The position numbers and the translations under genes are program-made. A model generated the notes under the pieces. The model did no database searches and had not been told where the DNA came from. It worked only from the letters and a program-made list of their open reading frames with translations. Positions 2,089 through 29,740 of a DNA stretch of 32,000 bases are shown piece by piece (the stretch's first letter is position 1; every line of letters starts with the position of its first letter). Source of the DNA: Candidatus Babelota bacterium (GTDB lineage Bacteria; Babelota; Babeliae; Babelales; JABDEC01); contig JABDFA010000011.1 of NCBI GenBank assembly GCA_013286795.1, positions 6,341 to 38,340 on the forward strand, read 5' to 3'.

Positions 2089-3966
2089 TTATGCACCAAA
2101 AGTTGAAGATGAATTTTCATCTTGAACTTGAGTGGTTGTTTCTTGAGATTGAGCAGCTGGAGTTGCAGGTTGTTCTTGAACAACTGGAGCAGCTACACTA
2201 GCTGAACTAGTTGAACTTGAAGATACAACTTTATTGTCTTGCGCTAATGTTTCCATACCCTTTTCTACATAATCTTGTAGAGAAAATGGTAAAAAGCTAG
2301 CTATAGACATATCGTTAGTTGATTCTTCTTGCTTTTTAGCTTCTGCTTGAACTGCAACTGGTTGTTCTTGAGCAGGTGCTTGAACAACTGGAACTTCAGC
2401 AGCAACTGCCGCTGCTACTTGAACTGCAGGTTCTTCTTTGATAACTGGAGTTGCAACTGGGGCAGCTACACTTGATGAACTAGAAGAACTTGAGCTAGAA
2501 GAAACATTACCAGCAAAGAAGCTGTTAACTCTTTCTGTAGCTACTTTATCTTCTTGTTCTTTTGTATCTACTTTAACAACAACTGGTTCTTGAGTAACAG
2601 GTTTTGCAGCTTCAACAGAAGCAGGACCAAAAACCTTGTTTCTCATTCTTCTCAAGAATGACAGATTATTCGATTTATCTTGAGCTACCACTTCTTCTTG
2701 TTTTTTTGTATCTACTACTGGAGCTGCAGCTGGTTGTTCTTGAGAAGCAGGTTTTGTAGTATCAAATCCACCAGAAATTTCTATTTCTGAAGGTTTTTGA
2801 TCCTGCTTTGACAATCTTGCTTCTGTAGCACGTGCTAATTGTTCACGTTTAGCAGCAGCTTCTTGTCTATCTTTTTCTTCAGCTTCTCTTGCAACAGCTT
2901 CTTGGTGTTCTCTACGAGCTTTTTCTCTTGCTTTTTGCTCAGCATCTATTTGAGCAGCTTTTTCTCTAGCTTTTTGATCAGCAAGAGCTTTTGCTTCTTC
3001 TTTAGCTTTTTGCTCAACTGCAAATCTTGCTTTTTCTTGATTTTGACGACTTAATTCATCGTTAGCTACCCTTACAGCTTCATGTCTAGCTTTTTCTTCT
3101 TGTTCACTAGTCAATCTTACAGATAAAGCAATAGCTTCTGCTTCAGTTTTAGCATTTTCTTGTGCAACAAGTCTTGCTTGTTCAGCTTGCTCATTTCTTT
3201 CTTTTTCTTCTTGAGCTTGACGTTGAAGTTCAGCCTGGGCAGCAGCTAAGTTTACAGCTTTTGCCATTTGGGCCATAAGATCTGTATTATTTAGATCTTC
3301 AGCCTTTTCTTTGCCTTCTTTATCTTCTTTGTCTTCACCATCTTGCTTTTTGTCAGCATCAGGTTTAACATCTTGTAAAGATGCAGCATAAGCTTTAGAT
3401 TCAGCTAAAGCAACTAAAACATCAAAATCATCTTGATTTGCTTGAACTTTATCTTCTTGAGCTTGTTGAGCTTGCGCAACAGCTTGATCTTTAGGCAATG
3501 CATTCAATTCTTCTATGAAAGAATCTTTTTGAGCCCTAAAAACACCAAAGTTTATGCCTCGTTTAGCAAATATAGAATCAACAGCCGGGTTTAATCTACC
3601 TGTTTCATCTATAAAAGGACCTACAAGGTTCAAAACTTCATCCATTACTGGAACTATTTCAAAGATAAACTGTTCTCTAGACATATTATCAACGTTCGTG
3701 CTTATATTCACAAATATATCTAACAAGTCAGAAATTTTATCACTTGGAGCTTCAGCTACTGGGACTACCGGAGCTGCAACAGCTCTTACAGGAGCAACAG
3801 GCTTTGCAGCTGGTTTTGCAGCTGGAGCCGGAGCTACGATTCTGTGAGGTGCCTTCTTTTTCATTCCACAAGCGCCGCCCTTACAAGGTCTAGGTCTATA
3901 CATTGACATAACCAATGAAGATTGTGCCAATGCAAGAACCATTAATTTAACTATTAGCTTTTTCAT
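2089..3966 (-). CDS. Secreted low-complexity / coiled-coil protein (Ala-Pro-Val-rich, K/E/A/Q-rich, poly-Ser)
   Basis: 625-aa ORF with a GGGAGG RBS just upstream of the ATG at 3966 and leader MKKLIVKLMVLALAQSSLVMS. It contains an AP-rich spacer, a long KEAQ-rich helical region, Ser runs, and repeated Sn-VAAPV...QEQP modules. No enzymatic motif was seen. Confidence 0.7.
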   Translation of the reverse strand: MKKLIVKLMVLALAQSSLVMSMYRPRPCKGGACGMKKKAPHRIVAPAPAAKPAAKPVAPVRAVAAPVVPVAEAPSDKISDLLDIFVNISTNVDNMSREQFIFEIVPVMDEVLNLVGPFIDETGRLNPAVDSIFAKRGINFGVFRAQKDSFIEELNALPKDQAVAQAQQAQEDKVQANQDDFDVLVALAESKAYAASLQDVKPDADKKQDGEDKEDKEGKEKAEDLNNTDLMAQMAKAVNLAAAQAELQRQAQEEKERNEQAEQARLVAQENAKTEAEAIALSVRLTSEQEEKARHEAVRVANDELSRQNQEKARFAVEQKAKEEAKALADQKAREKAAQIDAEQKAREKARREHQEAVAREAEEKDRQEAAAKREQLARATEARLSKQDQKPSEIEISGGFDTTKPASQEQPAAAPVVDTKKQEEVVAQDKSNNLSFLRRMRNKVFGPASVEAAKPVTQEPVVVKVDTKEQEDKVATERVNSFFAGNVSSSSSSSSSSSVAAPVATPVIKEEPAVQVAAAVAAEVPVVQAPAQEQPVAVQAEAKKQEESTNDMSIASFLPFSLQDYVEKGMETLAQDNKVVSSSSTSSASVAAPVVQEQPATPAAQSQETTTQVQDENSSSTFGA

Positions 3967-6199: not shown

Positions 6200-6280
6200 G
6201 AATTAACGTAATAATTACTTGAATTCAGCATAATCCAGGTTAAATTATTATCAATAAATTTTATAGTTTATACTAAAATA

Positions 6281-6444
6281 TGCTCGTATGGTTCGACGGG
6301 CTCACCACGAGCGCGAGGAAAATTCTCTGGATCCGCTCGTCCCGATGCTTCGACAAGCTCAGCATGACTGGAGTTTTTATTACTATCCCCGGCCATCCTG
6401 AATGTAGCGCGTAGCGCGAAATCGAAGGACGAGGGATACGAGCA
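6281..6444. repeat. GC-rich modular palindromic repeat, locus R1
   Basis: Bounded by 9-bp inverted termini tgctcgtat (6281-6289) / atacgagca (6436-6444). It contains module E tcaccacgagcgcgagg (6302-6318) and module D gatgcttcgacaagctcagcatga (6344-6367, identical 24/24 to 14793-14816). It also contains module C ggccatcctga...cgaaatcgaaggac (6391-6430). It is much more GC-rich than its surroundings. Confidence 0.85.
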
Positions 6445-6465
6445 CTTATTAATATAATCTTCTAG

Positions 6466-7134
6466 CTAAAGAATCACACAACATCTTTTTTTTATTTTAT
6501 GATTTTCACGATTTATAGTAAAAGTTCGAACCGGTAAACTCTCTACATATTCTATTTTTTCTAACATGTCAGTTGATAATGGCACGTTACTTCTTATAGT
6601 TCTTATCATATCTTTCATCAAGTCACCTACTTCATTAAATGCAGCTATTCTTTCTACATCATATTTATTTTTAATTTTTTTATTAATATCTGCACCGGAT
6701 TCTAATAATAATCTAACTACAGCAAATCTATGTTGATTGACAGCTAATGCAAGAGGAAAACATCCTTTGAAAAATTTTTCATCCCATTCTGCATTAACAT
6801 CTACACCTAGAGAAATAGCTGTTTTAACCAGATCCAAATTGTTATCGAGAATTCCCTGTTCAAGAATTTTAAGTAATGCCTCTTTTTCTTCATTAGATTG
6901 GCCGATATAAGCATAAACTATTTCAGATAAATCCTGAGCAGGGCAAACATTATTTTCATCAAAAAATCCTTGAATCTTGTTTTTTGCAGAAAGCTTCTTG
7001 AATGATTCGACAACATCTTCTTGTGAATTAAGTTCGCTTTCTATTTTTTCGTCACTAAAATCATAATAATCTAGGTTCATACAATTAGTTTTGGAAAATA
7101 TCACAAGTAATGCGAATATTTTAATTATTTTCAT
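6466..7134 (-). CDS. Secreted ankyrin-repeat protein with C-terminal polybasic CaaX box (CVIL)
   Basis: Leader MKIIKIFALLVIFSKTNC. Ankyrin consensus appears in GCFPLALAVNQHRFAVVRLLLESGADINKK and the preceding repeat. The C-terminus is HKIKKRCCVIL-stop (CVIL at 6469-6480). The start overlaps the uvrB stop by 14 nt. Confidence 0.8.
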   Translation of the reverse strand: MKIIKIFALLVIFSKTNCMNLDYYDFSDEKIESELNSQEDVVESFKKLSAKNKIQGFFDENNVCPAQDLSEIVYAYIGQSNEEKEALLKILEQGILDNNLDLVKTAISLGVDVNAEWDEKFFKGCFPLALAVNQHRFAVVRLLLESGADINKKIKNKYDVERIAAFNEVGDLMKDMIRTIRSNVPLSTDMLEKIEYVESLPVRTFTINRENHKIKKRCCVIL

Positions 7135-9085
7135 TTTTATTTAAAATCTTCTGTAATTCTAAAAGTTGGCCTCGAAGCTCAATAGCCAATTCAAAATCCA
7201 TATTTTCAGCAGCGTCATACATAGCTTTTTCAATTTCAATAATTTTTTTATTCAAATCTTCAGGTGCAATTTTGGCCTTCTTTTTACCCTTAGAAGCTTG
7301 AGCAATAGCTGATTGAATATTTGATATACTTTTGACAACTTCACGTTTGACAGTTGTAGGAACAATATTATGAAGTTTATTATATTCCTGTTGCATTTGC
7401 CTACGCCTATTCGTTTCAGTTATAGCGTTTTGCATAGAGCCGGTAATTTTATCAGCATAAAAAATTACTTTTGATTCAGTATTTCTAGCAGCACGACCAA
7501 TAGTTTGAATTAAAGATCTTTTATCCCTTAAAAAGCTTTCTACATCAGCATCCATGATAGCAACCAAAGCAACTTCAGGCAAATCTAACCCTTCACGCAA
7601 TAAGTTAACTCCAACAAGACAGTCAAATACACCTAATCTTAGCTTTTGAAGTAATTCAGTTCTTTCAGGGGTTTTTATACTGCTATGTAAATAGCATACT
7701 TTAATTTTCTGTTCTTCAAGATAATAAGCTAACTCTTCAGCCATTTTTTTAGTTAAGACTGTCACAAGAGTACGAAAACCTTTTGAAGTTGTATTTTTTA
7801 TTTCACTAATTAAATCACTTATTTGATTTAATCTTGGATGTATTTCGATCAAAGGATCTACAAGTCCAGTAGGTCTAATTATTTGTTCGACTATATTAGA
7901 AGAATTTTCAAGCTCATAATCACTAGGAGTAGCCGAAACAAAAATAACGTCTTTGAAATATCTCTCTATTTCTTCAAACTTTAAAGGGCGATTATCTTGA
8001 GAAGAAGGTAACCTAAAACCAAAATCTATTAAAGATTTTTTGCGAGCCTTATCACCTGCATACATACCTCGCAATTGTGGAACAGCAATATGTGACTCAT
8101 CAATAATTAAAAGAAGATCTTCAAAAAAATCAAACAAACAAGACGGAGCTTGTCCAGGGCTACGACCATCAAAATGTATAGAGTAGTTTTCTATGCCAGA
8201 ACAATATCCTGTTTCTTTTAACATTTCAATATCATGCATAACTCTTTTTGAAAGTCTATCTTTATAAATCTCATTAGTTAGAAGAGGTAAAGTTTCATCT
8301 AATTCAGATTTAATACTCTTTATTGCAGAACCTTTTTTTGCATCTGTTGTAACAAAATGTTTTGCAGGAAAAATTAAAACATTATCCAAATTATTTAAAA
8401 CAGCATTAGTTTGTTTGTTAACCCACTGCAAGCTTTCAACTTTGTCAGCAAACAGTTCTATACGTAATCTTTCTTTTTGATATGGCAAATTTATTTCTAT
8501 AGTATTACCTAGAACTTGAAATGTTCCATGACCTTTTTCCATATCATTTCTAACATATTGAATAAATATAAGTTCCTTTAAAAGATCAGCTCTTTTAATT
8601 TCCTGCCCTACTTTTAAAGATAAAGCTAATTCTTTATAATCTTTTGGATTACCTAGAGAATATATACTAGAAACAGAAGATATAATTATAGTATCTCTTC
8701 TATTAATTAAAGAGGCTGTAGCTTCTATTCTTAGTCTTTCAATTTCACTATTAACCTTTGTTTCTTTAGGTATGTAAATATCTTGAGCCGGTAGATATGA
8801 TTCTGGTTGATAGTAATCATAATAACTTACAAAATAACAAACCTTATTCTCAGGAAAAAACAGGCTAAACTCTTCATAAAGTTGAGCTGCCAAAGTTTTG
8901 TTTGGGGATAGAATTAACACAGGCTTATTCTGATTAGATATCACATTTGCCAGAGTAAACGTCTTACCTGATCCTGTAACACCTATTAGGGTTGATTTTC
9001 CTGGTCTATGCGAAGATAAATTCTTTATCGCCTCTGGTTGACTTCCTGAAGCCTCAAAAGGCATTTTTAATTTAAATAAACTCAT
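7121..9085 (-). CDS. uvrB: Excinuclease ABC subunit B
   Basis: 654 aa with Walker A GVTGSGKTFT, DESH box IIDESHIAVPQ, helicase C motifs, and a C-terminal UVR domain (MDFELAIELRGQLLELQ). The N-terminus PFEASGSQPEAI parallels E. coli UvrB. Confidence 0.97.
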   Translation of the reverse strand: MSLFKLKMPFEASGSQPEAIKNLSSHRPGKSTLIGVTGSGKTFTLANVISNQNKPVLILSPNKTLAAQLYEEFSLFFPENKVCYFVSYYDYYQPESYLPAQDIYIPKETKVNSEIERLRIEATASLINRRDTIIISSVSSIYSLGNPKDYKELALSLKVGQEIKRADLLKELIFIQYVRNDMEKGHGTFQVLGNTIEINLPYQKERLRIELFADKVESLQWVNKQTNAVLNNLDNVLIFPAKHFVTTDAKKGSAIKSIKSELDETLPLLTNEIYKDRLSKRVMHDIEMLKETGYCSGIENYSIHFDGRSPGQAPSCLFDFFEDLLLIIDESHIAVPQLRGMYAGDKARKKSLIDFGFRLPSSQDNRPLKFEEIERYFKDVIFVSATPSDYELENSSNIVEQIIRPTGLVDPLIEIHPRLNQISDLISEIKNTTSKGFRTLVTVLTKKMAEELAYYLEEQKIKVCYLHSSIKTPERTELLQKLRLGVFDCLVGVNLLREGLDLPEVALVAIMDADVESFLRDKRSLIQTIGRAARNTESKVIFYADKITGSMQNAITETNRRRQMQQEYNKLHNIVPTTVKREVVKSISNIQSAIAQASKGKKKAKIAPEDLNKKIIEIEKAMYDAAENMDFELAIELRGQLLELQKILNKNENN

Positions 9086-9173: not shown

Positions 9174-9911
9174 TTATCTTATTGGTTTAATACAATTTCT
9201 AAAACATTTACATATAAAATGGGAACACTTTTTTTCTCTTTTTGGAGTGTTTTCTTGATTAAAACTTTTTTGTTTTTCACGTTTTAATTCACTGATGTTT
9301 TGATCCAATTGAAGTTTAAAATCTCTTAAATTTTTGGTAAATTCTCCCACATAACTATCCACTATGTCGCTGAATTGTTCATCTGTTAATCTAGAATTAT
9401 TCTCAGAATCAATAGATTCTAAAATATGTCTAATTCTGCCTGGCATCGAATTAGAAGCAAAAGTGAAAAGGTTATCCTTTTTAAATTGTTCTATATCAGC
9501 TACTGCTAGATCCTTCTCTAGGTTTCTTAAAAAGTTACTTGCTTCAAATTCTAGTCGAATCTTAACAGATCCTACTAGATTTCTTAAAATAGGTTGCTCT
9601 TCTTGTGTCTTAGAATCTTCTGAAGGCTCGAATGTTTCATCTCCTGAGACATATACAAAATCATCTTCCTCTAATTGCATTGAGAAGATATTGAAGCTTG
9701 TAACAAAACAAAAAAATAGAACATATCTCTTGCAAAACCTAAAAATTTGTTTTATTCCGTTCGCCCTGAGTATCGCACGTAGTGCGATGTATCGAAGGGT
9801 GAATAAAAAATTATGTTCATGGTTCGATACGTTTGCTTCGCAAACACTCACCACGAACGGGCTCTCAAATAGAGTTATATTAGGTTTTGAAAGAAGCCTA
9901 ATTTGTCTCAT
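9174..9911 (-). CDS. Hypothetical protein, probably secreted; 5' end remodelled by repeat R2 and true start uncertain
   Basis: The ORF is open from the ATG at 9911, but the first ~50 codons are repeat-derived (PFVVSVCEANVSNHE ... LRANG). A leader-like KRYVLFFCFVTSFNIFS|MQLEEDD follows with no ATG of its own. An in-frame ATA (IKQIFRF...) sits where a start would be expected. The C-terminus carries a Cys-basic cluster, KKCSHFICKCFRNCIKPIR. Confidence 0.5.
   Translation of the reverse strand: MRQIRLLSKPNITLFESPFVVSVCEANVSNHEHNFLFTLRYIALRAILRANGIKQIFRFCKRYVLFFCFVTSFNIFSMQLEEDDFVYVSGDETFEPSEDSKTQEEQPILRNLVGSVKIRLEFEASNFLRNLEKDLAVADIEQFKKDNLFTFASNSMPGRIRHILESIDSENNSRLTDEQFSDIVDSYVGEFTKNLRDFKLQLDQNISELKREKQKSFNQENTPKREKKCSHFICKCFRNCIKPIR
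9757..9861. repeat. GC-rich modular palindromic repeat, locus R2 (module B + module A, inverted relative to R5)
   Basis: Module B: ccgttcgccctgagtatcgcacgtagtgcgatgtatcgaagggtga (9757-9802). A 12-nt AT spacer follows. Module A: gttcatggttcgatacgtttgcttcgcaaacactcaccacgaacgg (9815-9860). Module A is near-identical to 17641-17688. Confidence 0.85.
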
Positions 9912-9918
9912 AGCCAGC

Positions 9919-10428
9919 TCAACAGTATGGAAAACAACATTTTGATTTTTCTACAACATCACTAATTAATTTTTGGACACATTCTCTAAAAAATTTCTCT
10001 TGATCCTGAAGTAAGTCTTCAATTGTTGCTCCCGATAATATTTTTTCATTATAGATCAAAGCAAGCCTGCTTAAATTCAATTTTTTAATAGAATTAATTT
10101 TGTTGGCTATTTTTCTTTTAGTCCAGGGCATAACACGTAAGTTTTCAGATTCTGTTGCAATTATATGATCAAAACTCTCAGTTAAATGTTTAATAAAGTT
10201 ATCACGCGCAGCACTTCTAGCCTCTTCTCTTATAGCTTTAACACTAATACTATTTCTTGGAGGTAGTGGTGGCTTTTGTTGTAATACTACTACAGGATGA
10301 CCTTCAGTTTGATATCCAGGTTGCTGATCAGGAGCACTAGGTCTTGAACTTAAATTATCTCGATAATATTGATCAAATGCACACATCTTGCATACAAATA
10401 ACAGGGGTAAAACTAAGAGCTTTTTCAT
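9919..10428 (-). CDS. Small secreted hypothetical protein (Pro-rich N-terminal region, C-terminal Cys cluster)
   Basis: AGGAG RBS upstream of the ATG at 10428 and leader MKKLLVLPLLFVCKMCA. It contains KPPLPPR (10255-10275) and ends SKCCFPYC. The helical region (KKLNLSRLA...ATIEDLLQDQEKFFRE) resembles the 10503..11126 product (RELNLSQSFA...GTLDALIFEAERKFRD). Confidence 0.6.
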   Translation of the reverse strand: MKKLLVLPLLFVCKMCAFDQYYRDNLSSRPSAPDQQPGYQTEGHPVVVLQQKPPLPPRNSISVKAIREEARSAARDNFIKHLTESFDHIIATESENLRVMPWTKRKIANKINSIKKLNLSRLALIYNEKILSGATIEDLLQDQEKFFRECVQKLISDVVEKSKCCFPYC

Positions 10429-10502: not shown

Positions 10503-11126
10503 TCATAATTCTAATTCATCAGCAAAAGTTAAAGTAATATCTTCATCTGCTTCATATTCTACTACTTCGTTTTTATCATCTTTTTTTCTACATTTATAGC
10601 ATAAGAACCATTTCTTAAGTTTATCTTTGAAAAGATTTATATTTAATCTATCTTGGTTTCTAATCAATTCTTCAACTGAATCTTCAGCTAGACTAAAAAG
10701 AGTATCCCTAAACTTTCTTTCTGCTTCAAATATTAATGCATCAAGTGTTCCTAGTTGAGCAAAACTCTGTGACAAATTTAATTCTCTCAATATTAAATCT
10801 TTTTTTATTTTGGCACACCTTTTCATATCATTAACAGAAAGGGCTCCTAAATTTTTAATCTTTCTGTTTGCCTCAGGCAAATCCCAACTCTTAACATTCT
10901 TAATGACTGTCCTACTTTCAACCCCAGGAATAACAAACTCTAGTTTAATATTTGCAGCTGGATTCCCTTTTAATCTACTAACATAAATTTTGAAATTAGA
11001 AATATTATATTTAAAACTGTCTGAAAGATAGGATATAGTTTTCTGGGTGTCTGATTTTTTGATATTTTTATCCATGCAATTAACGCTAGACACCAGAAAA
11101 AATAAATTAATTAAGATTTTACCCAT
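10503..11126 (-). CDS. Small secreted hypothetical protein (paralog-like to 9919..10428)
   Basis: AAGGGAGA RBS upstream of the ATG at 11126 and leader MGKILINLFFLVSSVNC. It has a Cys-basic cluster KKWFLCYKCRKKDDK followed by an acidic tail. Confidence 0.6.
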   Translation of the reverse strand: MGKILINLFFLVSSVNCMDKNIKKSDTQKTISYLSDSFKYNISNFKIYVSRLKGNPAANIKLEFVIPGVESRTVIKNVKSWDLPEANRKIKNLGALSVNDMKRCAKIKKDLILRELNLSQSFAQLGTLDALIFEAERKFRDTLFSLAEDSVEELIRNQDRLNINLFKDKLKKWFLCYKCRKKDDKNEVVEYEADEDITLTFADELEL

Positions 11127-14669: not shown

Positions 14670-14890
14670 GGGAAGCATCCTTCAACAAGCTCAGGATAAA
14701 CTCCGTGCGAAGTCGAAGGACATAATTAGCCAATAGAAAGGTGGTCATAATTGTAATAATTATGACCACCTTAATTTCCTCGCGCTCGTGGTGATGCTTC
14801 GACAAGCTCAGCATGATCGGACTTTTTCTCTCCTACCAGTCATCCTGAGTGAAGTGCGCAGCACGAAATCGAAGGACAAACCATACGAGC
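14657..14890. repeat. GC-rich modular palindromic repeat, composite locus R3
   Basis: In order: module C copy (14657-14721), a 15-bp hairpin (14738-14772), and inverted module E cctcgcgctcgtggtga (14778-14794, the reverse complement of 6302-6318). Then module D (14793-14816), a second module C (14837-14877), and the shared right end atacgagc (14883-14890). Confidence 0.85.
14738..14772 (+). terminator. Perfect 15-bp hairpin inside R3, possible rpsA-ndk terminator
   Basis: Stem aaggtggtcataatt (14738-14752), loop gtaat, stem aattatgaccacctt (14758-14772). Only a weak T tract (aatttcc) follows. Confidence 0.35.
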
Positions 14891-14917
14891 TAATTAAGAT
14901 CTAATCCTATAAATCTC

Positions 14918-15616
14918 ATGAACACTAAATCAACACTCTACATAACGTTAGTTTTAATATCTATTTTTTCAGTAAATAAACCTATGGGTATAGAATCTCA
15001 AAAAATTAAAAAATGTGCCCGTAGAAAATTGAATAGAAAGTTGCGTAAAGCAATAATTAATAATAATTTAAAAAAAATAGAAACACTTTTGGAAAAAGGC
15101 GCTAATCCTAATATTAAAATAAGGCATATGATCACGCCTCTGGTTTATGCTGTATATGAAATTTCAAGTCCAAAAATGGTTGAACTGTTATTAAAATATA
15201 AGGTAGACGTTAATGATTATTATAAAAGTAATGAATATAAAGCTATACATTTAGCTATTAGAAGCTGCAACATTTGTATTACTAATTTATTAATTGATGC
15301 AAAAGCAGATATCAATATCCAAGACTGTTGTGGCAATGCCAGCTTACATTTTTTAAATATAAAACATAGGCCTGAAACATCCCTTAAACTACTTCCATTA
15401 TTACTTAACCATGGTGGAGATGTAAATATAAAAAACTTTGACAATAAATCTTTTTTAGATTTAGCACAAGAACAAAACAAAAAAGAGATTTTTGACATTA
15501 TCAAAGAACACCAGAAATTAATTATAAAAAAAATAGCTGAAGCAACTAAATATTGTCTGCCAACTGTATTAGAAAATATGATTGGCGAATATATTATATT
15601 TTTGGAAAATAAATGA
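14918..15616 (+). CDS. Secreted ankyrin-repeat protein, array member 1
   Basis: Leader MNTKSTLYITLVLISIFSVNKP and ankyrin repeats (TPLVYAV...MVELLLKYKVDVN; AIHLAI...LLIDAKADINIQD). The C-terminal tail is CLPTVLENMIGEYIIF. The stop overlaps the next start (ATGA). Confidence 0.85.
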   Translation: MNTKSTLYITLVLISIFSVNKPMGIESQKIKKCARRKLNRKLRKAIINNNLKKIETLLEKGANPNIKIRHMITPLVYAVYEISSPKMVELLLKYKVDVNDYYKSNEYKAIHLAIRSCNICITNLLIDAKADINIQDCCGNASLHFLNIKHRPETSLKLLPLLLNHGGDVNIKNFDNKSFLDLAQEQNKKEIFDIIKEHQKLIIKKIAEATKYCLPTVLENMIGEYIIFLENK

Positions 15617-16332
15617 ACAAATTAATTTTATACGTAATAATAACTTTATTATCAATCTCTCTATCTAACTATGCAATGATTCAAGAGTTAAACGAAAAAC
15701 TTCGTAAATCTGTAGATCTACAAGATCTAGAATTAATGGAAAAAACATTAAAAAATGGGGCTGATCCGAACCATATGGTAAAATATTGGACAAACGAAAC
15801 TTTAAAATATTGGCATGGAGATAAACCAATATTACATTATGCTATATTACAAAACTGCGATTCAAAAGTTATTGAACTTTTATTAAAGTATGGAGCAAAT
15901 ATAAATATTACAGAACGCAATAATTGGAATGCCCTATTTTGGGCTATAGAGAGAAATAATTTAATTATAGCGCAATTATTAATTAAACAAGGAATAGATT
16001 TAAATCTACAAGGTTTAAACAATGATACATGCCTTCACAGAATAATTCAATGCAAGTTCCCCTTTTATAATGACCCGCACAACACACAAAAAACTCGTGT
16101 TCTAAAAATCATTAATTTATTACTTCAATTCGGAGCTGATATAAATATAGAAAATAACCAAAATAAAACCTTTTTAGATTTAGTAAAACAATCCCAATAT
16201 AAGGATATACTCAAGGTTGTTAAAGAATGGCAAGAAATAACAAACAAAAAAATATTAGAAGAAACTAGCCCCTACTTGCTCCCTGTATTAGGAAATATAG
16301 TTAGCGAATATGTTACTGGATTAACGATATAA
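15613..16332 (+). CDS. Secreted ankyrin-repeat protein, array member 2
   Basis: Leader MNKLILYVIITLLSISLSNYA. The central region is about 60% identical to member 3 (ILHYAILQNCDSKVIELLLKYGANINIT...). The tail is EWQEITNKKILEETSPYLLPVLGNIVSEYVTG. Confidence 0.88.
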   Translation: MNKLILYVIITLLSISLSNYAMIQELNEKLRKSVDLQDLELMEKTLKNGADPNHMVKYWTNETLKYWHGDKPILHYAILQNCDSKVIELLLKYGANINITERNNWNALFWAIERNNLIIAQLLIKQGIDLNLQGLNNDTCLHRIIQCKFPFYNDPHNTQKTRVLKIINLLLQFGADINIENNQNKTFLDLVKQSQYKDILKVVKEWQEITNKKILEETSPYLLPVLGNIVSEYVTGLTI

Positions 16333-16337
16333 AACTT

Positions 16338-17066
16338 ATGAATAATAAATCAACTTTATCAATAATAATTTCTTTATCAATTTCTCTTGCAAATAATTCC
16401 ATGGATGAAAGGCCTAAAAAAAGAATCTGCTTAGAAAGCTATAGATACGAATATAAAAAATTTAAAGAAGCAATAGATACAGGAAATTTGGAATTAATGG
16501 AAAAACTAATACAAGAAGGAGTTGATCCTAATTGCATGATAGAATATCTGAGTGATAGTAGGTTTGCTTATTTCAACACTGGAGACATGCCAGCATTGCA
16601 TTACTCTATACTAAATGATTGTGACTCAAAAGTTATTGAACTTCTATTAAAATATGTCACGGATATAAATATTACGGACGATAATCATCGGAATGCACTA
16701 TTTTGTGCAGTAGAGAAAGGTAATTTAATTATTGCTCATTTGCTCATTAAACAGGGAATAGATTTTAATTTAAAAGATAATAAAGGTGATACATGTTTGT
16801 GTAAATCATATTACCGTTTTGTTTTTAATCAAAATGGCATCAAAGAAATTCGCTCTCTAAATATAATTCATTTATTAATCTATTCAGGCGCTGATATAAA
16901 CATAAAAGACAGCGATGATTACAGTTTCTTAGATTTAGCAAAAAGGAGTTGGGATGGAAGGATACTTGCAATAATTTTAGACTGGAAAAATTCCATTACT
17001 AAAGGAATTAGAACTTACATGCCGGCTGATTTAGGAAATATAGTTATCAAATATGTTACAGGTTAA
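16338..17066 (+). CDS. Secreted ankyrin-repeat protein, array member 3
   Basis: Leader MNNKSTLSIIISLSISLANNS followed by MDERPKKRICLE. Ankyrin repeats are present, and the tail is YMPADLGNIVIKYVTG. Confidence 0.88.
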   Translation: MNNKSTLSIIISLSISLANNSMDERPKKRICLESYRYEYKKFKEAIDTGNLELMEKLIQEGVDPNCMIEYLSDSRFAYFNTGDMPALHYSILNDCDSKVIELLLKYVTDINITDDNHRNALFCAVEKGNLIIAHLLIKQGIDFNLKDNKGDTCLCKSYYRFVFNQNGIKEIRSLNIIHLLIYSGADINIKDSDDYSFLDLAKRSWDGRILAIILDWKNSITKGIRTYMPADLGNIVIKYVTG

Positions 17067-17080
17067 ATAAAATTAAATTT

Positions 17081-17629
17081 ATGAACGCAAAATTAAACTT
17101 ATTTCTAGTAACATTTTCTCTATCTACGTTTCTTGCAAATAATTCTATGGATGAAAGACCTAAAAAAAGAATTTGTTTAGAAGAAGAATATAGAAAGAGA
17201 AAATCAACATATAATTGGAGGCATGATGTACGTATTAAAGACTTCGAATTCATAGAAGAAGCGTTACGAAACGGAGCAGATCCCAATTTTGAAATAGATT
17301 TTTTTGAAGGTAGCAATCTTTCCTATACAGGTTTACATTATGTAATTAAATGCTATAAATATCTTAGAGAAAAGGAAAAATCCCAACAAGCCTTAAATAT
17401 TATTAGATTATTACTTAAATCTGGTGCTGATATAAATTTAGAAGACACTCTAAAAAAAAGAACTTTTTTAGAACTAGCAAAAGAATCTGATGATGAGGAT
17501 ATACTTAAAATTATTAAAGAATGGCAAGAAGAAACAAACAAAAAAATATTAGAAGAAACTAGTCCCTACATGCCACCTGTATTGGGAAATATAGTTAGTG
17601 AATACGTTACAGGTAAATTAGAACAATAA
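17081..17629 (+). CDS. Secreted ankyrin-repeat protein, array member 4 (short mosaic copy)
   Basis: The 5' end (leader + MDERPKKRICLE) matches member 3. The 3' end (KEWQEETNKKILEETSPYMPPVLGNIVSEYVTG) matches member 2 almost nucleotide for nucleotide. The central ankyrin repeats are reduced. Confidence 0.85.
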   Translation: MNAKLNLFLVTFSLSTFLANNSMDERPKKRICLEEEYRKRKSTYNWRHDVRIKDFEFIEEALRNGADPNFEIDFFEGSNLSYTGLHYVIKCYKYLREKEKSQQALNIIRLLLKSGADINLEDTLKKRTFLELAKESDDEDILKIIKEWQEETNKKILEETSPYMPPVLGNIVSEYVTGKLEQ

Positions 17630-25340: not shown

Positions 25341-26594
25341 TTATTCTTCTGGAGCATACCAATCTTCAGGATCAACTATTCTTATTGGCCGTTCCCCGCC
25401 TTCTATTACAATACCACTTGAAGGTTCTGAAGCTTGTTGTCCTTCTGCTTCTTGTTTTTTTTCTTCTTGTCTTATTCTAGGTTGCGCTTCAGGAGAATGT
25501 TGTATTACAGGCAATTCTAAAGTTAAAGACCAGGGAGTGGAGCCTACTTCAGGTTTAGTGTCTTTTTGGACAGCTGCCCCTGTTAATCTTGCTTGTTCAA
25601 TTCGTTCATTTCTTTCTTTCTCTTCTTGAGCTGAAATTAAACGTTGTGCTTCTCGAATTTTTTCTTGCTTTTTTTGGTGAGCTAATTCTATAGCTTCAAT
25701 TTCAGAACCGAAGTTTTCAGCTTCTTCTCTATTTATTTTTGCTTCTTCAGATCTTACTACAGGTTGAGATTTTGCTGGTTCTGGTTTTATAGATTGTGGT
25801 TTTTGAGAAACTGTTGAAGCTTGTGCTTTTTGAGATTTTGCGCAAGCTGCTTCTATAGCCATTATCTGAGCAAGAAAATCTTCTTCATCTTGTTGTTGTT
25901 TAGGTGCAACATACTTTGGCTCTTCTAGCTTTATTCCAGATTTTTCCTTTTCAAATCGCTCAGAATTCAAGATTTGTTTTATTTGTGGATCTTTTGCATA
26001 GGAATAAGCATCTCGTCGATCTTTATTTACAAATTTAGGATCAGCACCATTAGCCAATAATAATTTAACTGTTTCAATCTTGCCATCTATAGATGCTCTC
26101 ATCAAAGGGGTAAGGTTGTTACTATAAGAGCCATTGACATTTGCTCCTTTTTCTAAAAGCAATTTAGCCAACTCAAAACTTGTATTGGCCGCCAGATAAA
26201 GGGGAGTATCACCATAAGCATTCGAAGCGTTTACATCAGCCCCACTTTCTATGAGTAACTTAGCTATTGGGAAATTTCCACGAAACGCTGCTGTCATCAA
26301 AGGTGTCCATTTAGCACCAGCACTAGTATCAGGAGCATTTACATTTGCTCCATTTTTAATAGCATTTTGAACTTCAATTATGTTACCATGATTTATTGCT
26401 TTTATAAGTTTCTTATTTTCTTCTTTCTCTTTATTTTCTTTTTCTTCTGATTTTTTAGTCTCTTTAGCTTTTTGACAAGCGACTTCAATTTTAGCAATCT
26501 CAGCGCTTAAATCTTCTTGCATTCCCATACCAGAAATTACTGATATATTAGCAAAAGCAACAAAAAATAAGCTAATTAATTTAAGGTTTTTCAT
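25341..26594 (-). CDS. Secreted ankyrin-repeat protein with repeated helical motif and K/E/Q-rich C-terminal region
   Basis: Leader MKNLKLISLFFVAFANISVISG. There are four good ankyrin repeats (TPLMTAAFRGNFPIAKLLIESGADVNA; TPLYLAA...LLLEKGANVNG; TPLMRASIDGKIETVKLLLANGADP). A GGAAGG RBS lies upstream. Confidence 0.88.
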   Translation of the reverse strand: MKNLKLISLFFVAFANISVISGMGMQEDLSAEIAKIEVACQKAKETKKSEEKENKEKEENKKLIKAINHGNIIEVQNAIKNGANVNAPDTSAGAKWTPLMTAAFRGNFPIAKLLIESGADVNASNAYGDTPLYLAANTSFELAKLLLEKGANVNGSYSNNLTPLMRASIDGKIETVKLLLANGADPKFVNKDRRDAYSYAKDPQIKQILNSERFEKEKSGIKLEEPKYVAPKQQQDEEDFLAQIMAIEAACAKSQKAQASTVSQKPQSIKPEPAKSQPVVRSEEAKINREEAENFGSEIEAIELAHQKKQEKIREAQRLISAQEEKERNERIEQARLTGAAVQKDTKPEVGSTPWSLTLELPVIQHSPEAQPRIRQEEKKQEAEGQQASEPSSGIVIEGGERPIRIVDPEDWYAPEE

Positions 26595-26802: not shown

Positions 26803-27598
26803 CTACAAATACTCAAAAATCAGATTTAATAGTTCTTTTGGTAAGGGAGTATTTTTATAAGCAATTTCATACTTATTCTTATTAAAAGAAATACAGTCTT
26901 CCCTTATAGCTTCACGAACCTTACTATTTTTAGCAAAGCTAAAACAATTTAGCCCCATTAGAGTCTTTCAATGCACTATCGGCTCCGGATTTTAATAAGA
27001 ATAAAGCTAGCTTCACATTGCCCATTTTGGCTGCATACATAAGAGCAGTTCTTCCTTGATAAGTTTGCCTATTAACATCGGCATCAAAGCTAACCAATAA
27101 CTTTGCAGCTTTTAAACTTAAAGAATTAAATTTTGAATCACAGACTTCTATCAAAGGTGTAAATCTATGTTTATTTGCTAAATTAGCATCTGCTCTGTTA
27201 AAGAGTAATAATTGTATCATTCTTAAATTAAGAGGAGTTCTGCAAACATTTAATAATGGGGTATTTCCAGCATCATTCTGATTATCTACATTTATACCTT
27301 TTATAGAAAGCAAAAATTCAATAATTTTTTCATCTTCAAAAACAATATTATTTGTTAAAATATTTAAAAGAGAATTTCTATATTTAAATAAACAATTAAC
27401 ATCTGCTCCCTGTTCAATTAACTCTTTAATATTTTCCAAATTTTTTATATGCAGCGTCTGCATTCTTAATAATTCATTTAACGAAGGTATATTTGATTCA
27501 GGTTCCTCTCTTTTTCTTTTTCGATTCATACCATCTATATATAAAAATTGGACACTTAAAATCAAAAAGCAAATTATTAATTTTTTACAATATTTCAC
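26803..27598 (-). pseudogene. Secreted ankyrin-repeat protein interrupted by a 1-nt homopolymer frameshift (called ORF 26939..27598)
   Basis: GTG start at 27598 with AAGGGTGG upstream, leader MKYCKKLIICFLILSVQFLYIDG, and ankyrin repeats. The ORF stops at ...DSNGAKLF-TAG. Removing one base from the A4 run at 26941-26944 continues the frame as SFAKNSKVREAIREDCISFNKNKYEIAYKNTPLPKELLNLIFEYL-TAG (stop 26803-26805). That restores the family C-terminal tail. Confidence 0.6.
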
Positions 27599-27779: not shown

Positions 27780-28865
27780 ATGAAAATTTCAAAAATAATA
27801 TTCTTATATCCCATTATTGTAGTATCAATTTTTGCCAAAACGATATTATCTATGGACAAAGATTTAGCACAGGCTCTAAAACAGAGTTTGGCAAGTAAAC
27901 AGGCTGAAGATGCAGAAAGAAAAGCAGAACGTGATTTGGCTGATGCCATAAAAAATAGTCTAAAAAGTTCCGACGATGACGACAAAAAAGTAAAAGAAGA
28001 AAATTTTCACATCGTACCTGTATTACCACAAAAAGGAGCGGATTGTGGTTATCATGCAATAAAAAATGGAAATATACTATATCAATGGTTAGCTGCAGAT
28101 GGAATATTAAAACAAGAAACAAAAAAAGAAATTGAACGAAGACTTAATGTAGAAGATGAAGAAAATTTCCCTTTAGAAAAATGGAGATCAATAGTTGCTC
28201 AAGTTAGAAAGGACAAACCTACTTTTGGCACAAAAGCAGGAGCAAACTTATTTGATATAGAAATAGCTAATATAATAAAAAATGAATTAAAATTATCTCC
28301 AGAAACATATTCTGTAATTGCAAACATAAATGAAATCGCAGAAAATAATAATAAAATTTTAGAACCTTTAGCTAAAACAGTAGAAAAAATAAGACTCAAC
28401 CCAAATGCCACACATATATTCATTTTGGGAAATATGAAAGAAACCAATGTAGCCTGTGGTCACTGGATAGCTGTTGTTCTAAAAAGAGATAATCGAAACT
28501 ATGAATATTACATTATGGATTCACTTGGTAGTAAAAGCAAAACCATAAACCCAATGGTTAAAAGCTTAGACACTGTATTAAAAAAAGCTAGATTAGATAT
28601 TGCCAAAATTCCAACTCTTGCAATCATAATAAATGAAGCTATAGACGCGATCCAAGAATTAGACATAAAAACTTGTCTGGCAAAACTTAAACAAGTAATA
28701 GAATCTAAATTAAATCCATTTAGTGATAAAACATTTGCCCAAGAAAACACAAGTCGTGTCAAACAAATATTAAATGGTATCATAGAATTTGGCTCAGAAG
28801 AAGATAAAAAAGAAGCACAAGAGCTTTTGAATAAACTTGCTCTAAAATCTAATATAAAAACTTAA
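27780..28865 (+). CDS. Secreted protein with two UIMs and a Josephin-like papain-fold cysteine protease domain (candidate deubiquitinase)
   Basis: Leader MKISKIIFLYPIIVVSIFAKTILS. UIM cores are DKDLAQALKQSLAS (27855-27899) and ERDLADAIKNSLKSSDDDD (27924-27971). QKGADCGYH carries Cys89 (28044-28046). GHWIAVVLKR carries His228 (28461-28463). YYIMDS carries Asp247 (28518-28520). Confidence 0.8.
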   Translation: MKISKIIFLYPIIVVSIFAKTILSMDKDLAQALKQSLASKQAEDAERKAERDLADAIKNSLKSSDDDDKKVKEENFHIVPVLPQKGADCGYHAIKNGNILYQWLAADGILKQETKKEIERRLNVEDEENFPLEKWRSIVAQVRKDKPTFGTKAGANLFDIEIANIIKNELKLSPETYSVIANINEIAENNNKILEPLAKTVEKIRLNPNATHIFILGNMKETNVACGHWIAVVLKRDNRNYEYYIMDSLGSKSKTINPMVKSLDTVLKKARLDIAKIPTLAIIINEAIDAIQELDIKTCLAKLKQVIESKLNPFSDKTFAQENTSRVKQILNGIIEFGSEEDKKEAQELLNKLALKSNIKT

Positions 28866-28890: not shown

Positions 28891-29047
28891 TTATACAAAA
28901 AATTCTTTTTCATCTTCATTTATACTTTCTTGGGCTAATTTGATTAATTTCTTAATTTTTTTTGTTTTAGCCAACTCTAAAAGCGACTTTTTACCTCTCA
29001 AATTAAGATATGGAAAAAAAATTGATATGCAATATAAATTAGTCCTA
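28891..29047 (-). pseudogene. Degenerate duplicate of the 3' end of the 29045..29740 gene (non-coding remnant)
   Basis: A Met-less minus-strand frame reads ISIFFPYLNLRGKKSLLELAKTKKIKKLIKLAQES...FFV-stop. The gene's own C-terminus reads TSIFLPFLNAKCKQEILEIVQQ. At the DNA level, 29002-29039 matches 29138-29175 at 32/38 positions, offset 136 bp. Confidence 0.35.
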
Positions 29048-29740
29048 ATGCATATCTAAACTACTTTTAATTAATCTCACAAATTTTCTCATATTTCTCT
29101 GTTGAACAATCTCCAAAATTTCTTGCTTACACTTAGCATTAAGAAATGGAAGAAAAATTGAAGTGAAATAAAAATCTTTTCTATTGCCTTCAAAATATGG
29201 ATTCTTATACACATTTTCAACTTGAAGACTCATACCTTCAGATATGATAAACTTAAGCCATTTATTATCATACCTTAATCTTATTATATCTTCTTTTGTA
29301 GGATTCTTATTATCATTCACATATTTTTGATACGCATTAACAACAATTCTCCATAAATAATCACTATCTTCTTTCACATGTCCATGTTGCTTATCAGTCA
29401 CAAATAAAAATCCAGCAACATAAGAAAATAGTTCGATTTTATTTTTATCTTCACCAATATCTCTCCAAAATCTAAAAAAACTCATTTTATCAGGCAGCAA
29501 AGCTCCATTATCAATTAAGATATCAACTAATTCTCTGTTATTCCTAGAAATAGCTGTCCATAAAGCCTCGTTTTTATATTCATTGGCTATTTTTTCTTCT
29601 TGCAAGATATTAGTAACCTTATTTTTATGACCATTAAGAGTTGCTGTAACCAAATATTTTCCCGGATTATTTAAAACCGGACTCATGGATTTTAAGTTAA
29701 AAGAAATAAATAATAAGATAAAAATAAGTTTAAATTTCAC
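29045..29740 (-). CDS. Secreted hypothetical protein with one or two weak ankyrin-like repeats
   Basis: GTG start at 29740 with an AGGAAA RBS and leader MKFKLIFILLFISFNLKS. An ankyrin-like segment ALWTAISRNNRELVDILIDNGALLP is present. Confidence 0.6.
   Translation of the reverse strand: MKFKLIFILLFISFNLKSMSPVLNNPGKYLVTATLNGHKNKVTNILQEEKIANEYKNEALWTAISRNNRELVDILIDNGALLPDKMSFFRFWRDIGEDKNKIELFSYVAGFLFVTDKQHGHVKEDSDYLWRIVVNAYQKYVNDNKNPTKEDIIRLRYDNKWLKFIISEGMSLQVENVYKNPYFEGNRKDFYFTSIFLPFLNAKCKQEILEIVQQRNMRKFVRLIKSSLDMH

Follow-up and report, generated by a model that had tools for sequence, protein, structure and literature searches.

To our knowledge, host prenylation has so far been demonstrated as an effector anchor only for effectors of Legionella and Salmonella. 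Here, we compare with these systems a gene for a small ankyrin-repeat protein with a C-terminal CaaX box, located on a 32,000-nucleotide stretch of DNA from a Candidatus Babelota bacterium (assembly GCA_013286795.1, contig JABDFA010000011.1, positions 6,341 to 38,340; hereafter the window, with coordinates counted from its first nucleotide). An initial annotation of the window had named Legionella AnkB as the precedent for this protein. AnkB of Legionella pneumophila (PMC2916131) is likewise small, with few ankyrin repeats and a C-terminal CaaX box, belongs to a parasite of amoebae and receives a host-made membrane anchor on the cytosolic face. However, AnkB carries an F-box at its N-terminus, receives a farnesyl group and is injected through Dot/Icm, a type IV secretion system (T4SS), whereas the window protein has no detectable F-box, has leucine as the X residue (a CaaL box), carries a predicted cleavable Sec leader and shares only generic ankyrin repeats with AnkB. 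NCBIfam models for T4SS/Legionella ankyrin effectors matched the window protein at insignificant scores only. The likeness to AnkB lies in a CaaX box predicted to be used in the host, whilst the farnesyl group, the F-box and the Dot/Icm route would not carry over.

Closer in their lipid are the geranylgeranylated effectors. Salmonella SifA is geranylgeranylated and also S-acylated on a nearby cysteine (PMC4951486), which resembles what we propose below for a cysteine doublet. GtgE of Salmonella ends in CTIL, of the same C-x-I-L form as the box studied here, and its membrane localisation is lost with an inhibitor of geranylgeranyltransferase I (GGTase-I) or upon Cys-to-Ser substitution, but not with an inhibitor of farnesyltransferase (FTase) (PMC13423502). 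Both have a CaaL-type box, yet they differ in having unrelated folds and functions (GtgE a protease, SifA a WxxxE/SKIP-binding protein), in type III delivery without a Sec leader and in belonging to Enterobacteriaceae. Amongst the Legionella Pel proteins, PelE and PelF are geranylgeranylated, unlike the farnesylated AnkB (PMC4951486, PMC13081727). The Pel proteins of one genome have only the CaaX ending in common and go to different host membranes; they are mutually unrelated and Dot/Icm-dependent, whereas the proteins described here are paralogs of a single family, with a constant box and a diversified second signal. AnkB is only an analogue of the window protein and not a relative, with SifA, GtgE and PelE/PelF as the closer precedents, and by its sequence the window protein would work like AnkB, SifA, GtgE and the Pel proteins whilst being a member of none of those families.

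The same two-signal design, a CaaX box plus a polybasic run or a palmitoylatable cysteine, is found in the hypervariable tails of eukaryotic Ras, Rho and Ral GTPases, such as CC-K-V-L in RhoB and R-E-R-C-C-I-L in RalA. The ending CVIL itself is, we take it, that of human FBXL2. In contrast to these proteins, the window protein is bacterial, has no GTPase or F-box/LRR domain and starts with a signal peptide; in a eukaryote, such a leader could not be reconciled with prenylation in the cytosol. CVIL is one of the CaaL sequences of human proteins tested in a yeast study (PMC11152559).

The nearest likeness in architecture and phylogeny is within the phylum Dependentiae, whose members are obligate intracellular parasites of protists (PMC6561590). 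The leader-bearing ankyrin proteins of Chromulinavorax destructans and Babela massiliensis (PMC6561590, PMC4776705) share the leader and ankyrin layout, are presumed to be Sec-dependent effectors and occur in many copies per genome, with no CaaX box or other host-lipidation motif reported in the literature searched. In the cultivated member C. destructans, signal peptides are carried by 44% of proteins overall and by 78% of its 98 ankyrin proteins (PMC6561590). A literature search retrieved no paper linking Dependentiae with CaaX boxes or prenylation.

Results

The gene encodes a 222-aa protein whose C-terminus reads ...NRENHKIKKRCCVIL (...INRENHKIKKRCCVIL directly before the stop codon), with the final stretch ...HKIKKRCCVIL. 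The CVIL box lies exactly where the initial annotation had placed it (6469-6480, within the minus-strand ORF 6466-7134), preceded by the second cysteine and the basic stretch (Table 1). An identical 222-aa protein is found in assemblies from NCBI, JGI and Logan.

Relatives were sought in a total space of ~15 billion proteins. Apart from the protein itself, a word-indexed search of 5.8 billion clusters returned a single ortholog, P0002 (86% identical, tail KIKQRCCVIL). When 1.84 billion representatives were searched exhaustively with phmmer, one more true relative of full length was obtained, P0006 (46% identity over residues 3-219), which ends ...HKCCSIL. The 4.6 kb contig of P0006 (L084) begins in the 3' end of uvrB, with three tandem paralogs directly after it, whose C-termini are ...RRHRPCFIL, ...HKCCSIL and ...LRGCCSIL. 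No further full-length members, only generic ankyrin proteins, were recovered by a profile search of the 5.8-billion-protein set and a scan of JGI metagenome contigs, and a GTDB scan with the ankyrin protein found nothing. Because long multi-repeat ankyrin proteins outrank true distant members in phmmer, the family could be somewhat larger than five.

All five members end in C-[V/S/F]-I-L (CVIL, CVIL, CFIL, CSIL, CSIL). The cysteine, the a2 isoleucine and the terminal leucine are invariant and only a1 varies (V, S or F). When divergent members are compared, the 20 residues preceding the box cannot be aligned (0-3/20 identical), whilst the box retains 3-4 of its four residues. The L084 paralogs are only 27-47% identical overall where UvrB is 90% identical, and the ortholog has fallen to 86% where UvrB stands at 97%. 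These comparisons point to a fast-evolving family with a frozen C-terminus. The dN/dS ratio between the window gene and its ortholog was 0.29 overall and 0.15 in the ankyrin core, and the gene is therefore under purifying selection.

The frequency expected by chance was calculated from 130 non-redundant ORFs of the window and seven related Babeliales loci (40,970 residues, Cys 1.1%). C-x-I-L occurred five times at a C-terminus against 0.022 expected, and all five occurrences were the CaaL family. As controls, a cysteine at position -4 was present in 0/40 complete generic ankyrin ORFs from metagenomes and in 7/214 generic ankyrin hits; the other seven ankyrin proteins of the window lack a CaaX box or host-lipidation motif. 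The ending could be a coincidence or a neutral relic without present function, for example from a eukaryotic gene, given that about one relaxed CaaX ending is expected per ~1,000 proteins (extrapolated from 0.14 per 130 ORFs) and that the family is confined to one narrow lineage. This explanation is very improbable: the box has been kept in every member at 27-47% identity whilst the adjacent 20 residues were randomised, the retention of three positions in three further lineages at ~35% identity has p ~1e-4 by a rough calculation, and the dN/dS ratio is that of a gene under selection. Pure chance is effectively excluded by this pattern of conservation, in agreement with the initial annotation, which had taken the tail to be a genuine CaaX motif.

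In contrast to the box, the residues upstream of it differ in kind between members. In the window protein, the 20 residues preceding the box sum to a net charge of +5, and there is Cys218 in addition; P0154 has +7 and no extra cysteine; P0006 has six extra cysteines; and P0153 has a CC doublet in an acidic context, such a doublet being present in four of the five members. The putative second signal switches between polybasic and Cys-rich forms, as in Ras/Rho tails. A role on the bacterial side has to be weighed here, in which Cys-x-I-L would form a disulfide or bind metal in the periplasm, be read by a bacterial machine as a tag for sorting or secretion, or be lipidated by the bacterium; the protein would then work in the bacterial envelope or at the cell surface and would never be prenylated. 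The Sec leader takes the protein through the periplasm, the P0006 tail has its six further cysteines, and conserved leader proteins encoded upstream of uvrB end in cysteine clusters that are not CaaX boxes (...KSKCCFPYC, ...AYCCCCLKRE, ...YLCCCSCLKRKTPH). We nevertheless consider such a role unlikely, as no known bacterial system reads a cysteine at -4 followed by I-L, no NCBIfam sorting-signal or Pfam model matched, and fixed C, a2 and X positions with a free a1 and alternating polybasic and Cys-rich tails fit eukaryotic prenyltransferases and membrane targeting. Nor is a disulfide or metal cluster a shared feature, since P0154 has no other cysteine in its tail.

The identity of the terminal residue bears on which host enzyme would act. 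The initial annotation had assigned the box to GGTase-I on the basis of X = Leu, and this class assignment is supported by the invariance of X in the family and by published precedent: CVIL and CTIL still undergo prenylation in yeast that lacks FTase, and CaaL/I/M sequences count as targets either of GGTase-I or of both enzymes (PMC11152559). A different host lipidation, either farnesylation by FTase or S-acylation only with I-L adding hydrophobicity, would draw on the interchangeability of CaaL/I/M sequences for the two enzymes, as all CaaL/I/M reporters except CSFL were prenylated in the yeast assay with human FTase (PMC11152559), and on PelA and PelH, which appear to be modified by both FTase and GGTase-I (PMC4951486). 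Some protist hosts, moreover, may lack GGTase-I. Set against the leucine kept in all five members, the shift of CVIL and CTIL without FTase and the inhibitor profile of GtgE, this alternative is quite improbable.

The initial annotation had also noted a Sec-type leader. Leader calls were made with a hydrophobicity heuristic (n-region charge, h-region, residues -3 and -1). By this heuristic the leader is present, with a basic n-region (MK..K), the h-region IFALLVIF and T-N-C at -3 to -1; its 9-residue hydrophobic stretch has a mean Kyte-Doolittle value of 3.04. A leader with like properties is kept in all five members and ends INC/M or VSA/M (a slash marks the leader end), and signal peptidase I is predicted to cleave between C18 and M19. 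As a methionine follows the leader, we considered that the leader might be an artefact of taking the longest ORF. This was rejected: its properties and frame are kept across paralogs at 27-47% identity, and independent gene calls include it.

A methionine directly after the signal peptide recurs in accessory, mostly ankyrin, leader proteins (...TNC/MN, ...NNS/MDE, ...NYA/MIQ, ...IDG/MN, ...ILS/MDK). It was counted in 11 of the 15 window leaders and in 3/3 in L084, versus 3/15 in a control stretch 40 residues downstream, and conserved housekeeping leader proteins of relatives do not have it. The window ORFs considered are 733-1893, 2089-3966, 6466-7134, 10503-11126, 14918-17629 (four ORFs), 25341-26594, 26939-27598, 27780-28865 and 29045-29740; the listing outside the window comprises L084 905-3065, L086 2661-3176 and 14716-16296, and L089 12033-12755. 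Leaders may have been grafted upstream of original start codons, or two starts may be in use.

The ankyrin signal of the window protein is small but genuine. Ank_4 (27.6 bits, cut-off 22.7), Ank (25.3, 21.1) and Ank_3 (22.9, 22.3) exceeded their Pfam cut-offs over residues ~82-168, all weakly, Ank_2 fell just short (26.7 vs 27.3), and ankyrin models matched all five family members. AlphaFold gave an unusable model from the two-sequence alignment of the protein and its ortholog (pLDDT 37); the five-sequence family alignment gave a model usable for the core only (residues 80-200, pLDDT 75-88), with helices at 168-181 and 188-199 (pLDDT ~86-88). The best PDB matches in Foldseek were designed 3-repeat ankyrins (rmsd 1.9-2.7 Å over 90-97 columns). 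For the last 19 residues (204-222) the pLDDT stays under 50 and the model shows no secondary structure, which would suit the flexible, accessible linker that prenyltransferase substrates need.

The N-terminal 76 residues have no usable AlphaFold model, and the N-terminal segment had no match in Pfam or the PDB. Its motif P-x-x-D-L-x-E-I-V-x-x-Y was considered as an AnkB-like F-box or a PRANC domain and this reading was rejected. With E values up to 10 allowed, Pfam yielded no F-box, F-box-like or PRANC match, either for the whole proteins or for the isolated N-terminal segment, and profile searching of the PDB with the segment gave 0 matches at the same limit. A related motif, K-x-K-I...P-x-x-L-x-x-I-[IV]-x-x-Y, is common to the pre-ankyrin segment of the CaaL family (aa 51-76) and to a set of four tandem leader and ankyrin ORFs elsewhere in the window (14918-17629, plus strand), which have a conserved C-terminal motif ...KKILEETSPYMPPVLGNIVSEYVTG and a relative at L003 1799-2518. 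In this tandem family the motif looks like the opening helix of an F-box or PRANC domain, with no Pfam or PDB match to back the resemblance, and the fourth copy (17081-17629) has lost its ankyrin repeats.

Table 1 Positions of the CaaL gene, its parts and its surroundings in the window.
Feature	Coordinates	Strand	Basis or remark
Complete gene, leader + ankyrin + CaaL protein	6466..7134	-	Stop codon TAG at 6466-6468
Sec-type signal peptide, aa 1-18, MKIIKIFALLVIFSKTNC	7081..7134	-	Hydrophobicity heuristic and family conservation; putative cleavage
Family-specific N-terminal segment, aa 19-79	6898..7080	-	Low model confidence
Conserved motif K-x-K-I...P-x-x-D-L-x-E-I-V-x-x-Y, aa 51-76	6907-6984	-	Family alignments
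Ankyrin-repeat core, ~3 repeats, aa 80-168	6631..6897	-	Pfam, AlphaFold, Foldseek, dN/dS
Helical C-terminal extension on ankyrin core, aa 169-203	6526..6630	-	AlphaFold; conserved in family
Disordered linker, aa 204-217, with polybasic end RENHKIKKR (6484-6510)	6484..6525	-	pLDDT and charge; putative electrostatic second membrane signal
Cys218, adjoining the CaaX cysteine	6481..6483	-	Candidate S-acylation site
CaaX box, C219-V-I-L222	6469..6480	-	Predicted GGTase-I substrate
uvrB, upstream gene	7121..9085	-	Synteny anchor; last 14 nt overlap start of ankyrin gene
Slot interval compared between loci	6200-7120		uvrB-M3 peptidase

The window has a G+C content of ~30%. For its UvrB, identity reaches 97-98% with the protein of one other assembly and 90% with a fragment from a third contig, and the named neighbours at 71-77% identity were all Candidatus Babeliales or Candidatus Dependentiae. 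The gene order SHMT-EF-P-NusB-NDK-S1-glycosyltransferase-uvrB-M3 peptidase is common to the window and to Babeliales/Dependentiae contigs. By UvrB identity and synteny, the source organism is a Babeliales (Dependentiae/TM6) bacterium, and the reading of the tail as one for a eukaryotic host, made in the initial annotation, fits the parasitic life of this phylum. The nearest GTDB representative genome (L004, CAZQDJ010000005.1) was deposited as 'uncultured Pseudomonadota bacterium'. We take this label to be unreliable, and probably a taxonomic mislabel, because L004 shares the synteny of the window and its UvrB, too, groups it with Babeliales/Dependentiae. Fifteen to 16 of the 32 window ORFs, about half, carry a leader and at least seven ORFs encode ankyrin proteins, each with a leader, which agrees with the proportions given above for C. 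destructans.

The ankyrin gene starts within the end of uvrB and is followed by the M3 peptidase gene; the 14-nt overlap makes co-transcription with uvrB likely. A promoter and terminator scan around the gene gave signals no better than those in shuffled sequence. The order of uvrB then one or more ankyrin-CaaL genes recurs in L002/L003 and L084. Inside the otherwise conserved Babeliales block (S1, glycosyltransferase, uvrB, M3 peptidase etc.), the slot that separates uvrB from the M3 peptidase gene is a gene-turnover hot spot: it is empty in L085 (11978-12056) and L088 (7237-7353), holds unrelated ORFs in L086 (11955-12493) and L089 (12033-12952), and otherwise carries one ankyrin gene or three. 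From this variability we take the CaaL family to have been invented or acquired recently within its lineage.

Directly 3' of the CaaL gene lies one copy of a GC-rich (>55%) palindromic repeat of ~170 nt (window 6262-6450, with a second copy at 14740-14900, the two being ~75% alike, and relatives at L003 10020-10075 and 11085-11160). The repeat has terminal inverted repeats GCTCGTATGG...CCATACGAGC, a predicted fold of -70.5 kcal/mol (z = -4.2) and no Rfam match, and looks MITE-like. Rfam and tRNA scans of the window were empty, so the GC-rich island beside the gene corresponds to no known RNA. At the ortholog locus, a shorter relative of the repeat is inserted in frame at the 5' end of the ORF and gives P0002 a 22-residue N-terminal extension.

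Just upstream of uvrB, two small leader proteins with no Pfam domain are kept in position in every Babeliales locus compared. Their C-termini have cysteine clusters with basic residues nearby (...KSKCCFPYC, ...KCSHFICKCFRNCIKPIR, ...AYCCCCLKRE, ...DCFCCNKK, ...FFCCCISKDDDK, ...YLCCCSCLKRKTPH); the loci are window 9919-10428 and 9174-9911 (minus strand), L003 6865-7939, L085 9527-9898, L086 9351-9887, L088 4762-5187 and L089 9537-9923. These tails could be host S-acylation motifs or periplasmic disulfide or metal sites. The 245-aa longest-ORF call at 9174-9911 is probably overextended at its 5' end, its L003 ortholog (7382-7939) having 185 aa and its own leader (MKQVLFFCFLTSLNIIS/MQLEEED), and a 193-aa ORF on the opposite strand (9364-9945, plus) is most likely spurious.

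Discussion

We consider it likely, from the conserved tail, the leader and the identity of the organism, that this gene encodes a secreted Babeliales effector that uses host CaaX processing, namely geranylgeranylation by GGTase-I, as its membrane anchor. The gene would be co-transcribed with uvrB, and its 18-residue leader would direct the product to the Sec system, with signal peptidase I cutting after Cys18. The outer membrane would then be crossed by type II secretion or in outer-membrane vesicles, bringing the protein to the host cytosol. Both routes have precedent in the phylum: the TM6 core includes type II secretion, with gspD in two copies (PMC4776705), and C. destructans, for which only the Sec system is annotated, sheds vesicles and replicates in the host cytoplasm (PMC6561590). 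That a protein with a signal peptide should be modified in a cytosol is only an apparent contradiction if the bacterium resides in the cytosol of its host or releases proteins there, as described for this phylum. Judging from the motif and the eukaryotic pathway, host GGTase-I would add a C20 isoprenoid to Cys219, after which Rce1 would remove -VIL and ICMT would methylate the new end. KIKKR, probably together with S-acylation of Cys218, would act as the second signal fixing the protein on a host membrane, where the ankyrin domain of about three repeats may hold a host partner. As the paralogs keep the box but swap the second signal (polybasic, Cys-rich, or acidic with a CC doublet), different host membranes are suggested for them.

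Several observations weigh against this effector reading. The Sec leader, which the initial annotation had called consistent with export, leads by itself only as far as the periplasm, so that a further step is needed; this outer step is drawn from the phylum literature, and no secretion genes were found in the window. The tail of one paralog is acidic, at net -4, an unusual feature in prenylated proteins. The survey of C-terminal CaaX motifs proposed for the whole proteome in the initial annotation, run here on the 130 ORFs, bore out the excess due to the family but revealed no enrichment beyond it. Only three genomes, all closely related (UvrB ≥90% identical), supply the five sequences, which hence represent few independent lineages. 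The slot of L004 (3649-4861; UvrB 71%) holds a leader-bearing ankyrin protein without a CaaX box, and those of other relatives are empty or hold unrelated genes. As neighbouring leader proteins end in non-CaaX cysteine clusters, the C-terminal cysteine may also serve the bacterial side.

Proteins lipidated in the host are a kind of effector already known; the phylum and the proposed delivery route are new. If host prenylation of the window protein is true, host prenylation of bacterial proteins would extend beyond Proteobacteria and beyond type III and type IV substrates. A CaaL box on a Sec-exported protein is moreover a built-in reporter, since the protein, if prenylated, must have reached the host cytosol; prenylation would therefore mean that leader-bearing Dependentiae proteins cross both bacterial membranes and meet host enzymes. 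The paralog series would constitute a natural experiment on how second signals choose a membrane. Ectopic expression, Cys-to-Ser mutants and GGTase inhibitors provide a cheap test of the prediction that does not require the bacterium to be cultured.

A broader possibility, which we put forward only tentatively, is that Dependentiae send Sec-dependent proteins to the host cytosol by type II secretion or vesicles, with no injection apparatus, and address them there with Ras/Rho-style lipidation 'zip codes', in which the CaaL box is constant, the upstream tails pick the membrane and the cysteine clusters are sites of host S-acylation. Dependentiae are widespread and almost uncultured, with hundreds of presumed effectors. 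If this were so, host lipidation would be a general strategy of the phylum rather than a curiosity of Legionella and Salmonella.

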